64,000 bases of DNA, taken from the IMG/VR virus record IMGVR_UViG_3300031994_000020, one strand, 5' to 3'. Both the position numbers and the translations under genes were made by a program. Position 1 is the stretch's first letter; each line of letters begins with the position of its first letter. Below the pieces are notes generated by a model. It saw only the letters and a list, made by a program, of their open reading frames with translations, ran no database searches and was not told the DNA's origin. This DNA comes from a virus (lineage: Duplodnaviria > Caudoviricetes). Shown piece by piece: positions 4,527 through 55,273 of the stretch.

Positions 4527-4586
4527 ATATATTTCCTTTCTTTATCTTATATAAATATTATATCATATTTTTTTTAAAATGTCAAA

Positions 4587-4931
4587 TGGACTTGACGGGA
4601 GTCGAACCCGTGTCCGCGATTCCTATTCCAAATCAATTTTTTACGCAATAGTGTTTTAAAGTGTTCACTCACTGAGCCGACAGGTTATACCTGTTTAGTC
4701 CCACCACTTGTTTTTTCTAAAACAAGAAACTATATAGCCTTTCTTATAAGAGTGAGCATTGACTGGCAAAAGTATTACTCACAATTCCTAAACTCAAGCT
4801 GCAAGAGCAACTTTAGTAGGGAAAGAAACAATTTTCTTTGCGTTTATTTTAAATTAGTGATTGCATAACGCGCATATCATTTCGTGCGAATTGATTTTTT
4901 TATTGAACCTCGTCGAATACCTTACAAGCCC
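4587..4931 (-). ncRNA. ssrA: tmRNA, tag peptide (A)AKKIVSFPTKVALAA ending in TGA
   Basis: 5' GGGCTTGTAAGGTATTCGAC, resume context ATAAAC-GCA, tag ending ALAA, 3' GGACACGGGTTCGACTCCCGTCAAGTCCA. Confidence 0.92.
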
Positions 4932-9275: not shown

Positions 9276-11117
9276 TTATCTATCATTATATAGATATATA
9301 TTCTATGCTTCATTCTAAGCACAAACGTCATTTGTTGTCCATGTAATTGATGAGCTTACAAGTGAATGGCTACCTGAAGTTGACATTGCATTTTTCATAT
9401 TTCCGCCAATACCAAAATGGATCTCTTTTCTTTTTTCACCATTTGTTGATTGAAATAAACCATCCTAAGCATTAACATTCATACCCGTCATATTAGTAAT
9501 TGTAATAATATTTTCAAAATTTTTACAATTAGCAAGCATATATCCTACACTTGGACAATTAACTGGTATTGTTAATGGTTGATTAAAATTATAACAATTT
9601 GAAAAAGTAAATGTTAATCTAACGTTACTATTTGGTAATTTTATAGGTTGGTTAAATGAATGAGCACTATTAAACATACTTGTCATATCATAAACAGTAT
9701 CAGGTATATTAATAGGCTGATTAAATGACTAAGCATTATAAAACATGTTACTTGTATTAGTAATGTTATTAGGTATATTAAAAGGTTGGTTAAATGATCG
9801 AGCATTGTAAAACATCTATGTTACTGAACATCCGTTTCCATTATTATACTATTGTATATTTAATGAAGCATTAAATGGACTATTATCAAACATCCTTTCT
9901 GTATTCTGTGCATTTTCAATATATACAGAAGAATTTAAATTACTTGAACTAAAAATACCTGATAATCTTACTGGTTTATTAGAATAAATATTAACAGAAC
10001 TATTAAAATTGTAACAGTAACCAAATGCAGAAGAACAATCAGCCTATTCAAATTTTGAATTACAATAAAAATTCATGGGTTGATTAAAATTTCTACAATT
10101 CTAAAACATTTGATAAGCATTCATTGTTTCAACATAAACAGGACTATTAAAATTAATACAATTTGTAAAACAGTATTGACTCTAAGTAACATTTTTAATA
10201 TTAACAGGACTATTAAAATTAAAGCAGTTATAAAAACAATTAACTATACTTGAATTTAGATTAATATCATCAATAATTATATCTATAGGTTGATTAAAAT
10301 TATAAGCTTCTCTAAAACAATTTACCATATTAGTTACATTATGTGGTAAATTAAGAGGTTGATTAAAATTAAAACAATTTTGAAACGTCCCCATCATCTG
10401 TAAATAAATATTATTAGTAGCATTTGATAATATAGTTATAGATGAATTAAAATTTCTACAATCATAAAGCATATTTCCTATATTCTTAACATTTTCAGGT
10501 ATTGTAATAGGCTGATTAAAATTATTACAATATCCAAATGCAGCAAATAATGATGTGCAAGTTTCTGGAAAATTTACTCTTTGATTAAAACTTTCATATT
10601 GCTACATTAAATAATCCAAATTTGTAGCGTCTTCAGCTATTGTAATAGGCATATTATAAGCATTTTGAAAACGATTCATAGGGAATGTTCCACCTATAAT
10701 AGTATTATTAGTAAAAGATATTGAAAAATCTACACTTTCACTATAAATCTAAGATTTAATATATCCTGCACTGTGTTCTATATTACTTTTTAGCTAGGTG
10801 ACCCTCTAGGAAGTACCATAATAATCTATATTAAAAAAATTATCATAATTCACAGGATTATTTTTTAAATTTGAATAAAGATAATCCATAGATGATATTA
10901 AATTTTCATTAATATACTTTTCTACTGTTATACTAGCATCAGTACCACCTGTTGTTTTTGTTAATATATGATAACGATATACAGTAGAAGATCCACCGCC
11001 AGTATTTATGTTATTAATGGCGGCCGCCATTTCAGAAGGCTTATAAGTTGTTGCAACTCCCGCCTTGCTTCTTATACTATTTGCTATATCTAAAAAGATA
11101 TTTGTTAATGTACTCAT
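9276..11117 (-). CDS. 613-aa BspA/DUF285-like leucine-rich-repeat protein, probably virion-associated (13 in-frame TAG)
   Basis: Single frame from ATG 11117 to TAA 9276; repeats MFxNCxxFNQPxxIPxxV; every internal stop is TAG. Confidence 0.8.
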
Positions 11118-12390: not shown

Positions 12391-12498
12391 AAGACTTCCA
12401 TATTTGAGCCGGGGACTGGATTCGAACCAGTATCTTCTAATTTTGTTAGATGCACTACCTTTATACTACCCTGGAAATTATTTTGCTGATGAAGTCTT
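12391..12498 (-). ncRNA. CAGCAA-stem RNA enclosing a tRNA-like domain (copy C)
   Basis: AAGACTTC-ATCAGCAAA...D arm, 5-nt-loop hairpin, T arm ACTGG-TTCGAAT-CCAGT...GAAGTCTT. Confidence 0.7.
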
Positions 12499-12873: not shown

Positions 12874-12991
12874 ACGGAAGGACGAGACTCGAACTCGTAT
12901 CATCAGGCCCCCTAAGCATTATAATAATTGCTGTACAAGAATATATCTAATCTCTTTTATATACTGCGCTCTACCATTAAGCTACCTTCCG
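12874..12991 (-). ncRNA. tRNA-like RNA whose anticodon arm is replaced by an ACAGCAA-containing insert (copy E)
   Basis: CGGAAGG/CCTTCCG acceptor, canonical D and T arms, ~60-nt insert containing TACAGCAAT. Confidence 0.65.
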
Positions 12992-12993
12992 CG

Positions 12994-13085
12994 CAGGAGC
13001 TGTAGGACTCGAACCCACACCCGAGGCTTTGGACACCTCTGTCCCGGTTTTAGAGACCGGTGTGCTGCCATTACACCAAGCTCCC
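12994..13085 (-). tRNA. Amber-decoding tRNA (anticodon CTA), tRNA-Trp paralog with long variable arm
   Basis: CCGGT-CTCTAAA-ACCGG; acceptor GGGAGCT/AGCTCCT-G; T arm identical to the adjacent tRNA-Trp; 25-nt variable region. Confidence 0.93.
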
Positions 13086-13094
13086 AATTAATAG

Positions 13095-13165
13095 CAGGAG
13101 TTGTAGGACTCGAACCCACCTCTCTGGTTTTGGAGACCAGGGCACAACCCCTATACCAAACTCCC
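13095..13165 (-). tRNA. tRNA-Trp(CCA)
   Basis: CTGGT-CTCCAAA-ACCAG, GGGAGTT/AACTCCT-G. Confidence 0.93.
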
Positions 13166-13171
13166 ATAATC

Positions 13172-13281
13172 AAGACACTATATAAGTTTGGATTCGAACC
13201 AAAATCTTTAAACTTTTACATCTAATATTCTACCTTTAAACTACTCTCCCTTTGCGGAAGCAACATCGCTGTTAGTGTCTT
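13172..13281 (-). ncRNA. ACAGC-stem RNA enclosing a tRNA-like domain (copy F)
   Basis: AAGACACTA-ACAGCGA...D arm...TTTGG-TTCGAAT-CCAAA...TAGTGTCTT. Confidence 0.65.
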
Positions 13282-13516: not shown

Positions 13517-13518
13517 AG

Positions 13519-13591
13519 TACCCAAAGTAGGATTCGAACCTACAAAAACTACGTCCTTAGCGCAGTGCGTATGCCATTCCGCCATTTGGGC
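13519..13591 (-). tRNA. tRNA-Leu(AAG) lacking the long variable arm
   Basis: Leu-type D arm GGCGGAATGGCATACGC, CTGCG-CTAAGGA-CGTAG, 5-nt variable loop, A73. Confidence 0.8.
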
Positions 13592-15482: not shown

Positions 15483-15555
15483 TTCTCATTCTGGGAATCG
15501 AACCCAGTCTCCAACCCTCTTTAGGGTCGGGTGCTTCCCATCACACTCAATGAGA
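15483..15555 (-). ncRNA. tRNA-like RNA with 8-nt anticodon loop
   Basis: TCTCATT/AATGAGA acceptor, D and T arms, CGACC-CTAAAGAG-GGTTG. Confidence 0.6.
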
Positions 15556-16180: not shown

Positions 16181-16343
16181 CAGAAGTCTTATTAACTTTT
16201 TATCTTATATAAATATTATATCATATTTTTTTAAGAAAGTCAAATTTTTTATTTTCTTTATTTTATTTTCCTTTCTTAACTTTCTATAAATATTATATCA
16301 TATTTTTTTATAAAAGTCAAATATGATTTTTTAATAAAGAATA

Positions 16344-16429
16344 CGGGTGCGATAGGATTCGAACCTACATGGAGTTTCCTCGCACTGACGGGTTAACAGC
16401 CCGCTGCCAAGCCTTTTGGCGACACACCC
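16344..16429 (-). tRNA. tRNA-Asn(GTT) with atypical long variable arm
   Basis: GCGGG-CTGTTAA-CCCGT, 19-nt variable region CAGTGCGAGGAAACTCCAT, G73. Confidence 0.88.
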
Positions 16430-16557
16430 AATTAATAATGCAGACGTTACCACCGCTGCCACCAAAGAATAACTTTCCCAACCTCGTGCACAGGTTGCTC
16501 TGGCCCCCAACTATTAGTTGTTCAGAAAGTTTTTCATGCTACACTTACAAAAGCAAG

Positions 16558-50208: not shown

Positions 50209-51417
50209 ATGGCAGAACAAAGATTTTGTTCCAAATGTCGTAAGACAATGGCGGCAGACACTAACTTTTATACCTATAAAGATGGAACGAAATGCGAATT
50301 ATGCAAAGCATGCTTAACTATGCACATAAATAATTAGGAGCCGGAGACATTTCTTTGGCTTTTGGAAAAATTTGATGTTCCTTGGATTCCATCAGAATAG
50401 AATGTATTAAGAGATAGAGCTTATCAAAAAGACCCCCATAAGATGACCGGTATGTCTGTCTTTGGTAAGTATTTGTCTAAAATGAAATTAAAACAATAGA
50501 ACAAATATACTTAGGCAGATACTGAAAGGCTAAAAGCGGAAGCTGAAGAAAAAGCTAAAAAATATGGTATGCCTGATGAACAAGCGCAAGCTCAATTAGA
50601 AGAAATGAAAACTGCTTATGAAAATGGAGAAATTTCAGAAGCTCAATATAAAACATATGCAGAACAAAATGCACCAGAGCCAACACCCGAACCTGCGGCG
50701 GCTCCTCCTTCTGATGGATATGAGTATCCGGTAAATTCTCCCTTTGAGGAAGTACCCATTGTAGATGTAGGTGCGGATCTTACTGATGAAGATAAAATTT
50801 ACTTGGCTATGAAATAGGGAAGACTTTATAAAGCATATGAATGGGTTGCGCTTGAGCAATTATATAAAGAGTTTATGGATTCATTTGATATTCAAGGTGC
50901 AGCAAGAATCGACACTCTTAAAATGATATGTAAAACAAGTTTAAAAATGAATCAAGCAATAGATTGCGGGGACGTCGATTCGTACCAGAAGTTATCTAGA
51001 GTATATGATGCCATGATGAAATCCGCAAAATTCACAGAAGCTCAAAATAAAGAAGGTAAATCTGATTTTGTTGACTCTGTTGGTGAATTAGTTGCTTATT
51101 GTGAAAAGAATGGTGGACAAATTCCTAAACATGAAATTAAAGCTCCTTATGATATTGTTGATAAAATTATAAATGATTTAAAAGAATATAATAAGACTTT
51201 AATATATGAAGATAAATCATTAGCGGAAGAAATTGAACAATATTTAAAGAATAAAGAAATTGCTGAGAATATGAAGAGAGATAGAGAAGCTGCACGAGAA
51301 AAAGGTCAAGATGAAGTTGAATTAACTGATGAAGATTATGAAAATTTTAAAAAAGCAATAGCAGAAGATAAAGAAAAAGATCAACAACTTGAAGCGGGAG
51401 GTGCTGATGAAGAATGA
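50209..51417 (+). CDS. Zn-finger protein directly upstream of TerL, putative terminase small subunit (5 TAG)
   Basis: FCSKC..CKAC; TAG at 50335, 50398, 50497, 50512, 50815; contexts KQ*NKYT*AD, MK*GRLY. Confidence 0.7.
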
Positions 51418-53153
51418 GTTTACAAAATTTATTAGACCTCTCAGAATCAAGATCAGTTAAACAAGGTCTTTCTGAAGAAAGATTAAAAGAACAAATTCCT
51501 CATTTGAGGAAATTAATCTCTTTTTATAGAGAATATCCTGATTATCTTGTTGATTTTATGAAAGGTCCAGATAGTACTTTTCAATTTTATTTTTATCAAA
51601 GAATATTTTTAAGAGTGGTAATGCGACATAGATATGTTTATGCAACCTTCCCTCGTGCTTATAGTAAATCATTTTTAAGTATGATGGTTTTGATGCTTAG
51701 ATGTATTCTTTATCCTAATAGTCAATTATTCGTAACGACGGGCGGAAAAGAGCAAGCTGCAAGTATCACAATAGCTAAGATAGAGGAGATATGTAAGCTG
51801 ATTCCCGCACTTAATAATGAAATAAATTAGAACCGCGGTGTTTCTAAAAAATCTAAAGATGATGTAAAATATGTATTTAAAAACGGTTCTTCTATTGATA
51901 TACTTGCGGCAAGACAATCTTCCAGAGGTCAACGTAGAACAGGTGGCCTTATGGAGGAATGCGTGCTTATAGACGGTGATATACTTAATGAAGTTATAAT
52001 TCCTACTACAAACGTAGATAGATTACTACCGGATGGAAGTAGACATAAAGAAGAAAATGTAAATAAATCTCAAATATATATTACAACGGCGGGATAGAAA
52101 AATAGTTTTGCATATGATAAACTTGTGGAACTTTTAGTCCAGAGTGTAATTGATCCAAATGAGGTTATGGTAATAGGTGGAACTTATGAGACACCAGTAA
52201 CTGAAGGACTATTAGATGAGTCTTTTGTTGATCAACTTAAAATACAAGGTACTTATAATGATGAATCTTTTGATCGTGAATATAGATCAATCTGGTCTGG
52301 TGATGTAGAAAATGCTTTTTATTCAGCAGAAAAATTTGATAAACATAGAGTATTATTACAGCCAGAGTATGAATATAGCGGAAGGTCCTCTAAATCAGCC
52401 TACTATGTAATTGGCGTAGACGTTGGTCGTATTGGATGTACGACAGAGGCTTGTGTATTTAAATCAACACCTCAACCACAAGGTTCAGATCTTAAGACTC
52501 TTGTTAATATTTATACTTACGAATCAGAAGATTTTGAAACACAAGCAGTTAATTTAAAAAAATTATATTATAAATACAAGGCGCGGGTGCTCTCTATAGA
52601 CGCCAATGGTCTAGGTATTGGTCTCGTTGATTTTATGACTAAAGCTCAAGTAGATCCAGAGACTGGTGATGATTTACCTCCATTTGGAGTTGAAGGCGGT
52701 ACTTCAGAAGACGCTTCAGAGCTTTATAAAAATATAAAAGGGTATGGAGTTGAAGAAAATGCCATGTATTTAATTAAAGCAAATGCTCCTATAAATACAG
52801 AAGCTTATTCTTATGCTCAAACACAAATGTCAAGCGGAAAGGTAAAGTTTCTTATTGATGAACAAGCTGCAAAGACTAAATTAATGAGTCAAAAACAAGG
52901 ACAGACATTAAATGCAGATCAAAGAAATGAATATCTTAAACCTTTCGTTTTAACTTCAATATTAAGAGAACAAATGTTAAATTTGGTACAGGATAATGAA
53001 GGTGTTAATATTATTTTAAAGCAAAATAATAAAAGTATTAGAAAGGATAAATTTTCTGCTTTTATTTATGGTTTGTATTATATAAAACAAGAGGAAGATA
53101 AAAAGAGAAAGAGAAAGAAAAGAGATATAAGTCAAATGTTATTTTTTAGTTAA
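51414..53153 (+). CDS. terL: Terminase large subunit (TAG at 51828 and 52095)
   Basis: Walker A-like PRAYSKS, Walker B GLMEE, motif III ITTAG*KN, nuclease 'GVDVG','IDANGLG','KDKFSA'. Confidence 0.93.
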
Positions 53154-53573: not shown

Positions 53574-53594
53574 TCCTGTCGTTTCCTTTGTTGC

Positions 53595-53623
53595 TTGACA
53601 ATTTAGAAAAAATATGTTATAAT
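53595..53623 (+). promoter_or_regulatory. Perfect sigma-A promoter upstream of portal
   Basis: TTGACA-N17-TATAAT with TG extension. Confidence 0.8.
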
Positions 53624-53653
53624 AGAAATATAGTGAGAAAAGGAGGTGTCTCT

Positions 53654-55273
53654 TTGCGTAATAGAATTAAAGAAAATCATATTAAAGATTTTAGTATGAT
53701 GACACCAAGAGATACTAACCCTAATCAAACTTCTGGTTATCAAGGTATCCCCGCCATTGATTTTAATAAGATTAGGATTGGTGCGAAAACCCTTGATGAT
53801 GCCATTCTTAAATTAGGTGATTTAAAGAAAGCTAATCCAAAATTAGCAGATAAAGGAACTATATTAAAAGCTATAACTAGTTATGATTTACAAACTATGA
53901 GAGAAGCATCTGATTTATTTTATAAAGTAAGTGGTATTTATTCTCGTATTATTAAATATATGGCTTTTATGTATCGCTATGATTGGATGATTACTCCTTT
54001 CGTTAATGATGAATCTGTTAAAAAAGAAAAATTATTAAAAGGTTTTCAAAATGCTTTAAATATATTAGATAATTTTGGAGTAAAGAAAGCTTTTGGAGAA
54101 ATTGCTAAAGAAGTACTTTTACATGGAGCTTATTATGGTTATAAGGTAGATACAAAGGAAGGAATGTGTTTACAAGAACTTCCTGTAAATTATTGTAGAA
54201 GTAGATTTAATCAAGGCAAAAGACCGGCAGTTGAGTTCAATATGAAATTTTTTGATGAACAGTTTAGAGATGCCGCACAGAAGATGAAAGTATTAAAAAT
54301 GTTTCCAGATGAATTTTCAAAAGGTTATATTTTATATAAGCAAAATAAATTACCTCCTGAATTCATGGGTGATACAAGTGGTTAGTATTTATTAGATCCA
54401 AATAAGACTGTTAAATTTAATATTGCGGGAGACGATTATCCTCCATTTATAGCAGTCATTCCTTTATTAATTGATTTGGATGAAGCACAGGCATTAGACA
54501 GAAAGAAAACTTTACAAAGATTATTAAAGATAGTAATTCAGAAGATGCCGTTAGATAAAAATGGTGAATTAATATTTGATGTGGATGAAGCTCAACAGCT
54601 TCATAATAATGCTGTTCAGATGTTAAGTAGAGCAATTGGTGTGGATGTCTTAACTACATTTGCAGATGTTGATGTAGCTAGTATGACCGAAAATCAGGCA
54701 TCTGCGCAGACAGATGATTTAGCAAGAGTTGAAAGACAAGTTTTTAATGAAGCTGGTTTATCTCAGATGCAATTTAATACTGATGGAAACATAGCATTAG
54801 AGAAGTCTATATTAAATGATGAATCAAGTATTTATAATATGATTCTTCAGTTTGAGCAATTTTTAAATGAGCTTATTGAACCATGTAATATGGGTAAGAA
54901 AGCTCAATTTAAAGCACAGATATTAAGCACTACAATTTATAATTATAAAGAGTTATCTAAATTATATAAAGAACAAATGCAAATTGGTTTCTCAAAGATG
55001 TTACCTCAAATTGCACTTGGTCAATCACAAAGTAGTATTCTTGCTAATGCATACTTTGAAAATGATATACTTGATCTGGTTAATGTATTTATACCTCCTT
55101 TAATGAGTTCTACTATGAATGAAAATATTCTTAATAGAGTTAAAGGCGGGAACCCAGGCACTGGGAGTCCATCAACTAACCCTGGTAAGGAACAGGAAGG
55201 CGCCGGCCGCAAGGAATTACCAGATGATCAAAAGTCAACAAAGACTATTCAAAATAGAGAGAGCATGAATTAA
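53654..55273 (+). CDS. Portal protein (TTG start; TAG at 54383)
   Basis: Position between terminase and head genes, ~540 aa, C-terminal 'AGRKELPDDQKS'; SG*YLLDP. Confidence 0.8.

Follow-up and report, generated by a model that had tools for sequence, protein, structure and literature searches.

How can a tRNA with the anticodon CUA be charged with tryptophan (Trp), when the anticodon is the very part by which tRNA-Trp is recognized? The question is raised by a 64,000-nucleotide (nt) stretch of viral DNA (IMG/VR record IMGVR_UViG_3300031994_000020, Caudoviricetes; the whole stretch is called the window below), in which an ordinary tRNA-Trp(CCA) gene is followed by an amber suppressor tRNA(CUA) with a long variable arm. 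The window belongs to a large gut/rumen phage with 34% G + C. We found that the variable arm is built like a second tRNA-Trp anticodon hairpin, and we propose it as a putative decoy identity element for the tryptophanyl-tRNA synthetase (TrpRS), a reading to which we give a probability of roughly 60%. As far as its sequence tells, the suppressor belongs to a family of tRNA-Trp in which the anticodon arm is duplicated, being the member that reads amber, and it is the decoder behind TAG = Trp in this phage. New here is a predicted, so far undescribed identity mechanism on a phage suppressor tRNA.

The two genes are separated by a 9-nt spacer (13086-13094), with the suppressor downstream (Table 1). 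Both were found by ARAGORN and by the Rfam model RF00005 (E-values 1e-10 and 2.3e-9). The suppressor, which ARAGORN folded as a cloverleaf, matched the full model (positions 1-71) with a score well above the cut-off of 29 bits, the arm being treated as an insertion, indicating that it is a tRNA. The acceptor stems are nearly identical (GGGAGCU/AGCUCCU and GGGAGUU/AACUCCU, both with G1.U72), the T arm (GTGGG-TTCGAGT-CCTAC) is the same, and both tRNAs have the discriminator G73 (position 12994 in the suppressor). An earlier reading of the same DNA, made from the letters alone and called here the sequence-only reading, had described this pair, its shared stems, G73 and the CTA anticodon, and all of it was confirmed. 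It had also described a variable region of 25 nt (GACAGAGGTGTCCAAAGCCTCGGGT, 13019-13043) with a GAGG/CCTC stem, against 4 nt (AGAG) in tRNA-Trp(CCA). This was likewise correct, but the loop on that stem had been missed as the anticodon loop of tRNA-Trp.

The arm has the architecture of an anticodon arm, and its loop, U-CCA-A-A, equals positions 33-38 of tRNA-Trp. The Trp anticodon set C34 C35 A36 is absent from the suppressor's own anticodon, and CCA is present only in the variable arm. The body is Trp-type (G1.U72, G2-C71, G3-C70, G5-C68, G73, A15/U48). With respect to the acceptor set A1-U72, G2-C71, G3-C70, G4-C69, G5-C68, suppressor and neighbor have G1.U72 and A4-U69 and the other three pairs as listed, while most relatives of the suppressor have the canonical AGGGG/CCCCU. 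The minimum-energy fold of the window tRNA alone was not a cloverleaf and kept the arm hairpin; those of three relatives were five-arm cloverleaves. ARAGORN named the suppressor tRNA-Pyl (pyrrolysine), because it goes by the anticodon alone. Pyl-type bodies have a very short variable loop, a small D loop and an elongated anticodon stem. We rejected the name, given the long variable region, a D loop of 7 nt and an anticodon stem of 5 base pairs (bp).

The same arm was found in relatives with other codes. In the TGA-recoded relative G007, a 93-nt tRNA(UCA) with an encoded CCA end lies next to tRNA-Trp(CCA), with the D arm and T arm of the window suppressor and the same arm design. To look at the arm without presupposing its loop, IMG/VR was scanned with only the anticodon stem-loop and the T arm constrained and the variable region left free. 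All 15 distinct long-armed UCA tRNAs recovered by this motif-free scan had a U-CCA-A/U-A arm loop. When they were aligned with the window tRNA, 97.5% of the arm-stem cells were paired and four of the five pairs changed on both sides, a result that none of 500 shuffles reached and that no register shift of the arm-stem alignment came near. In a family of 19 sequences there were 15 different arm stems with 92 of 95 pairs intact, and the loops were CUCCAAA (11), GUCCAAA (7) and GUCCAUA (1). The window suppressor aligned over its full length with the 18 other members (mean column identity 82%) and has the traits of the family, a stop-reading anticodon and a 5-bp/7-nt arm with the cognate anticodon loop. 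G73 was present in all 52 sequences of the wider family set. To judge from these alignments, the arm loop is under purifying selection and the stem covaries.

That TAG stands for Trp in this phage was seen at the codon level. Reading TAG as sense joined many fragments into full-length genes (Table 1); further TAG-bearing genes were phrog_3313 (2 TAG), a sigma factor (4) and a gene of 328 amino acids (6). We gathered 80 related loci via the terminase and aligned the window proteins to them with an X at each TAG, which gave 23 sites in 9 of the 12 tested genes and 1072 aligned residues. Opposite TAG were Trp (811; 75.7%), Tyr (113; 10.5%), Phe (92; 8.6%) and Gln (2; 0.2%), and opposite the window's own TGG were Trp (73.5%) and Tyr (18.8%). 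At the TAG sites, the log-likelihood of Trp exceeded that of any other amino acid by over 3000. Because the TAG columns resemble the TGG columns and Trp is best by likelihood, TAG means Trp, not Gln, in the window phage. Code 15 (TAG = Gln) was rejected for the window, with its 2 Gln among 1072 residues. The codons opposite the window's TAG included 811 TGG and 74 TGA, the latter in TGA-recoded relatives. TAG itself was found there in none of the 80 relatives: the closest ones (76-92% terminase identity) had TGG, and others write Trp as TGA. TAG at Trp columns and a matching tRNA are thus both present, as in a TAG = Trp code (NCBI table 32). The CUA anticodon fits the recoded codon, and the earlier proposal that the suppressor decodes it agrees with a Trp-type paralog beside tRNA-Trp and with TAG at Trp positions.

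The codes of the related loci were assigned by codon-level alignment, as the gain in open reading frame (ORF) length under TGA- or TAG-sense was too coarse for tRNA-rich loci. Close standard-code relatives (G001, G002, G005) had tRNA arrays without tRNA-Trp and without a suppressor, and a DNA search with the window array gave only scraps. An 89-nt 'atag' call in G005 was dismissed for its poor fold. Among the 80 relatives, many had TAG at Glu-like columns and one at Gln columns. The loci with in-frame TAG mostly opposite Glu were L022, L030-L034, L038-L059, L064-L068 and L073 (in L043, Glu 33, Asp 6, Gln 3), and their TAG profile fits the substitution profile of Glu rather than that of Gln. 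In G009 there was a class I tRNA(CUA) (L092:4857-4932) with an acceptor stem resembling that of phage tRNA-Glu. A phage code with TAG = Glu appears to be undescribed.

With a single search pattern, the arm was found in IMG/VR on UCA tRNAs of 58 contigs from many habitats, and on no CCA and no CUA tRNA, while ordinary tRNA(CCA) genes sharing the anticodon loop and T arm of the pattern were common. A metagenome scan gave three CUA tRNAs with the arm besides the window (L203, L204, L206); a fourth match (L205) fell within coding sequence and was discarded as a false positive. The contig that carries L206 is 144.6 kb long. The other two, L203 and L204, are found within tRNA arrays, L204 with a gene order resembling the window's and L203 with the same Trp-then-suppressor pair and 9-nt spacer. 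In these three contigs, TAG = Trp was supported by two or three codons only. The UCA carriers G007, G014, G015 and G016 had TGA at Trp columns. Carriers mostly keep a separate tRNA-Trp(CCA), often adjacent, and their terminases are very different (32-68% identity). The survey shows an arm restricted, among the genes retrieved, to stop-reading anticodons. The anticodon fits the code of its carrier, UCA going with TGA = Trp and the window's CUA with TAG = Trp.

ARAGORN called the UCA relatives tRNA-Sec (selenocysteine). In true tRNA-Sec the acceptor/T stems are 8/5 or 9/4 and the D stem has 6 bp. The label was rejected, since all these relatives have 7/5 stems and a 4-bp D stem, and TGA in carrier genomes lies at Trp columns. 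On the contig of L206 there is also a class I tRNA of 71 nt (L206:5829-5899, minus strand), called as UCA, whose body is not of the Trp type. The 3' CCA is not encoded by any tRNA gene of the window or of L203, L204 and L206. In UCA-carrying relatives (e.g., L090, L093) it is encoded on nearly all tRNAs, a difference which may reflect that the TAG = Trp and TGA = Trp lineages live in hosts of different groups.

The turnover of four of five stem pairs with compensation, next to six of seven fixed loop positions, is hard to reconcile with an arm that is a neutral leftover of a duplication, on a tRNA whose UCA or CUA the host TrpRS simply tolerates. TrpRS does charge UCA tRNA-Trp in many systems (Borges et al., preprint 10.1101/2021.08.26.457843), and two armless Trp-like UCA tRNAs exist. 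A neutral relic is further at odds with the lack of CCA tRNAs with the arm in the IMG/VR pattern scan and with a second, independent case, CUG on Gln bodies, described below. We regard it as very improbable.

The origin of the gene could be traced in the L206 member, compared by BLAST with GenBank phages. An annotated tRNA-Trp of Acinetobacter phage Ac42 matched it over positions 7-42 in both genes, and one of Aeromonas phage B614 matched, with its positions 28-73, the stretch of L206 from the arm to the discriminator (positions 49-93; 39 of 47 identical). One match to an annotated tRNA-Gln, of Streptomyces phage BRock, covered the 5' half only. Because both halves separately match ordinary tRNA-Trp, these matches show an internal tandem duplication of about 22 nt, spanning the anticodon arm and the variable loop, as the source of the arm; read in this way, the gene is tRNA-Trp(1-43) plus a linker plus tRNA-Trp(27-73). 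The sequence-only reading had taken the suppressor to be born by tandem duplication of tRNA-Trp and its arm to be new. This was not supported, at least 58 IMG/VR contigs having the same tRNA with UCA and three other metagenome contigs having it with CUA. Because the design is shared with these UCA and CUA contigs, the arm, on the comparative evidence, is no novelty of the window phage and did not arise in it. The suppressor's D arm matches the wider suppressor family, unlike that of the neighboring tRNA-Trp(CCA), while its acceptor stem and T arm are common to both neighbors. From this combination, later homogenization, or adaptation of both genes to one TrpRS, seems likelier than a recent origin on the spot.

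A parallel case was found for Gln. A motif-free scan for the anticodon loop CUCUAAA gave 100 distinct CUA tRNAs, 33 of them long-armed. In about 20 of the 33 (e.g., L286, L296, L318, L315, L332, L356, L279, L324) the arm loop was YU-CUG/UUG-AA, that is, with the Gln anticodon, and the bodies were Gln-like, with a weak 1-72 pair and G73. Five of the phages with CUG/UUG arms are terminase relatives of the window (35-62% identity), and all five had in-frame TAG in the terminase region. There, TAG stood at Gln columns in 32 of 63 cases, including seven terminase columns with Gln in 79-80 of 80 relatives, and these phages had TGG where the window has TAG. Three combinations were thus seen: arm loop CCA with anticodon UCA and TGA = Trp; arm loop CCA with anticodon CUA and TAG = Trp; and arm loop CUG/UUG with anticodon CUA and TAG = Gln. 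Since suppressor arms read CUG/UUG in the related TAG = Gln phages and CCA in the Trp ones, the comparison shows that, in these phages, the arm loop predicts the amino acid.

Long-armed tRNAs of other kinds were also met. In huge phages with contigs up to 405 kb (L097, L109, L111, L119, L138, L155 and others) there were tRNA(CCA) whose D arms are of class II type and whose long variable arms have GAAA-type loops; they look like Trp readers with Ser/Leu/Tyr-like bodies and G73. Amber tRNA(CUA) on Ser-like class II bodies (acceptor GGAGAG..., G73) were present in L372, L369, L258, L342 and L367, which suggests, as far as such bodies are indicative, TAG = Ser suppression in some phages.

Why would a suppressor keep a copy of the anticodon it has given up? 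Trp identity depends mainly on the anticodon, on G73 and on the first pair of the acceptor stem, and mischarging is established for tRNA-Trp with the anticodon CUA (PMC9976931). Because bacterial TrpRS needs C34, C35 and A36 plus G73, a plain tRNA-Trp(CUA) loses its Trp identity and drifts to Gln. In the mechanism that we propose, the first anticodon-arm copy, in the normal position and mutated to CUA, would read UAG on the ribosome, and in this way TAG could encode most of the Trp in the phage's late genes. The other copy, placed where class II tRNAs have their long variable arm, would have kept the original U-CCA-A-A loop and would present this spare CCA hairpin to the anticodon-binding domain of the host TrpRS. 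Trp identity would so be restored to a tRNA that has lost C35 (CUA) or C34 (UCA), and the host enzyme would load Trp. We infer binding of the arm by TrpRS, expression of the suppressor and its charging with Trp from the conserved loop, the covarying stem, the CCA tRNAs without an arm and the Gln parallel, on which the decoy proposal is built. We see an even chance that this is a general phage trick, in which a duplicated anticodon arm acts as an identity tag and leaves the other copy free to mutate, so that any anticodon could be charged. The arm loop, not the anticodon, would then set the amino acid, and one phage family could switch between TGA = Trp, TAG = Trp and TAG = Gln.

The sequence-only reading had offered two purposes for the arm, blocking glutaminyl-tRNA synthetase (GlnRS) or serving a dedicated phage TrpRS. 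Of these ideas, a role in synthetase identity stands as the most likely. The block is the weaker idea, since the loop is sequence-specific and CUG arms occur on Gln suppressors. In its wider form, the arm would act sterically and negatively, keeping GlnRS or a tRNA-cutting defense nuclease off a tRNA whose CUA the TrpRS tolerates unaided. A Trp-bodied CUA tRNA does need protection from mischarging, and the body is friendly to GlnRS (weak 1-72 pair, G2-C71, G3-C70, G10, U35, G73), by rules taken partly from PMC9976931 and partly from Su7. Bulk would suffice for such a block, in contrast to an invariant U-CCA-A-A loop over at least 15 different stems. The arm also occurs on UCA suppressors, where U35 is lacking and GlnRS poses little danger, and on Gln-type amber suppressors a device against GlnRS would be senseless. 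In GlnRS the variable region of the tRNA would point away from the enzyme, judging from known complexes, and in complexes of TyrRS and TrpRS the tRNA is bound across the dimer with its variable-arm side toward the protein. TrpRS and TyrRS are the exceptions among class I synthetases, which otherwise approach the acceptor from the minor-groove side (PMC7373986). We consider a steric role unlikely.

The other purpose would make the arm a handle for a dedicated phage factor (a TrpRS encoded by the phage, for example, or an enzyme for modification or processing) and not for the host TrpRS. Genes for TrpRS and RF1 are indeed present in some TGA-recoded Jade phages (Borges et al., preprint 10.1101/2021.08.26.457843), and the window covers only 64 kb of the genome. 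Pfam searches of the ten largest unassigned ORFs of the window gave no TrpRS and no release factor, which leaves the dedicated phage TrpRS of the sequence-only reading without a candidate there. Such a factor would also have to travel with the arm across terminases of 32-68% identity and many habitats, while the loop, being identical to the anticodon loop of the host tRNA-Trp, is already recognized by the host enzyme. We rate a phage factor as improbable, on a par with the steric role.

A two-headed tRNA, in which either hairpin could serve as the working anticodon arm so that both UAG and UGG are read, seems least credible of all. The 3-4 nt between the second hairpin and the T stem do equal the length of a class I variable loop. 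In that state, however, hairpin 1 would come to lie between the stems of the D and anticodon arms, which could then no longer stack; a separate tRNA-Trp(CCA) is present in most carriers, and the relatives' minimum-energy folds keep all five arms of the cloverleaf.

Several points weigh against the decoy element that we favor. A 5-bp arm leaving the core puts its loop away from the place of the anticodon, and TrpRS would have to bind it differently. In the larger sets the motif UCCAWA was part of the search pattern, which imposes the loop invariance there; three of the four CUA members were found via the loop motif, and only the motif-free UCA set and the window itself are free of this bias. 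The two Trp-like UCA tRNAs without an arm indicate that a UCA tRNA can do without it. The types of arm and body are co-inherited, and the match between loop and amino acid could come from common descent. Finally, the window represents 64 kb of a genome of about 146 kb, and a phage TrpRS could be encoded beyond it.

Table 1 Coordinates of the tRNA pair, its two anticodon-type hairpins and TAG-bearing genes in the window.
Feature	Position	Strand	Remarks
Amber suppressor tRNA(CUA), 92 nt	12994-13085	-	ARAGORN; Rfam RF00005 54.2 bits
True anticodon arm of the suppressor, CCGGU-CUCUAAA-ACCGG	13044-13060	-	Anticodon CUA at 13053-13051
Variable-arm hairpin of the suppressor, GAGGU-GUCCAAA-GCCUC, 5-bp stem and 7-nt loop	13023-13039	-	Spare CCA at 13032-13030
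Ordinary class I tRNA-Trp(CCA), 71 nt	13095-13165	-	ARAGORN; Rfam RF00005 49.2 bits
Large terminase, 2 in-frame TAG	51414-53153	+	Trp in relatives 69/80 and 68/80
Portal, 1 in-frame TAG	53588-55273	+	Trp in 64/66 relatives
Late gene phrog_3314, 5 in-frame TAG	50209-51417	+	Trp/Phe/Tyr columns
ORF of 613 amino acids, 13 in-frame TAG	9276-11117	-	Adjoins the tRNA array; open only with TAG as sense

The pair is part of a minus-strand array of 23 tRNA genes, and the window has one tRNA-Lys elsewhere and a transfer-messenger RNA (tmRNA) gene (4584-4931, minus strand; 80.8 bits; tag peptide AKKIVSFPTKVALAA). Among the protein-coding genes, we recognized the large terminase, the portal, the sigma factor and virion genes. 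A promoter and terminator scan around the tRNA pair was no better than shuffles. The suppressor tRNA gave no BLAST match in Escherichia coli genomes, the window gave no close megablast match among GenBank phages, and its exact T-arm/acceptor pattern was not found in IMG/VR.

Two tRNA-like elements without an ARAGORN call flank the pair on the same strand. One, 2 nt downstream of the suppressor (12874-12991; Rfam 45.9 bits), has perfect acceptor, D and T arms and a 57-nt insert that replaces the anticodon region. The other lies just upstream of tRNA-Trp (13179-13250; Rfam 36.2 bits). Odd tRNAs of the window, all on the minus strand, were located at 16343-16430, 13518-13591, 12406-12475 and 15483-15555. 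They comprise an 88-nt Asn(GUU) with a Tyr-like body and a long variable arm with a GAAA-type loop and no anticodon copy, a Leu(AAG) with a short variable loop only, a Phe(AAA) with A34, and one 4-base anticodon call.

Among known systems, the nearest are the recoded gut phages with code 15 (TAG to Gln) or code 4 (TGA to Trp) (10.1101/2021.08.26.457843, PMC9523058). Like the window phage, they carry their own stop-reading tRNA, the recoded codon is concentrated in late (packaging and virion) genes, and no synthetase is evident, charging by the host being assumed. The phage recoding survey found no reassignments other than TAG to Gln and TGA to Trp in phages whose code departs from that of the host, and left the charging of the suppressors open (10.1101/2021.08.26.457843); the window phage differs in having TAG = Trp. 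In the phAss-1 paper, Gln was assigned. The theta-ribozyme preprint (10.1101/2023.06.13.544163) gives Trp as the isotype of 19.4% of 180 phage tRNA-Sup (nearly all amber), by software only and without codon evidence. We found no mention of a second anticodon hairpin in the variable arm in the recoded-phage literature, no description of duplicated or second anticodon arms elsewhere, and on TAG-to-Trp only work on the Balanophora plastid, none on phages.

The spare hairpin, if true, would answer how unmodified host enzymes charge suppressors for Trp and Gln, whose synthetases are the most anticodon-dependent, and would explain how TAG is held at Trp on a Trp body despite the drift to Gln. From the arm loop one could tell, by a simple sequence rule, which amino acid a recoded stop encodes. 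Phage annotation pipelines that assume TAG = Gln will mistranslate such genomes. The design also suggests anticodon-independent tRNAs for anticodon-reading synthetases and, if true, would give genetic code expansion an identity module that is portable and of natural origin.

TAG = Trp is otherwise tabulated only for the plastid of a parasitic plant: NCBI table 32, Balanophoraceae, gives the codon the same meaning, in a plastid and not in a virus, and to our knowledge no decoy arm occurs there. The E. coli suppressor Su7 (supU) has the same Trp body with C35U and reads UAG. It is a class I tRNA and is charged largely with Gln; the window suppressor instead has a 25-nt arm with a spare CCA loop, and its TAG codons lie at conserved Trp columns. 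Like the class II tRNAs (Leu, Ser, bacterial Tyr, Sec), it has a stem-loop between the anticodon and T arms. In tRNA-Ser the arm is the main determinant, and charging is independent of the anticodon (PMC7373986). In class II tRNAs in general, the length and orientation of the arm matter and its loop is not conserved, whereas in the window suppressor it is the loop sequence that is conserved, as a copy of the cognate anticodon loop. From tRNA-Sec the suppressor differs further by its Trp-type body, 7/5 acceptor/T stems and 4-bp D stem. Mimics of anticodon arms outside tRNAs are bound by anticodon-reading synthetases, for example the thrS mRNA operator by ThrRS (PMC9976931). The thrS mimic regulates translation of the synthetase mRNA, whereas the mimic in the window is built into the decoding tRNA itself and would serve its aminoacylation.

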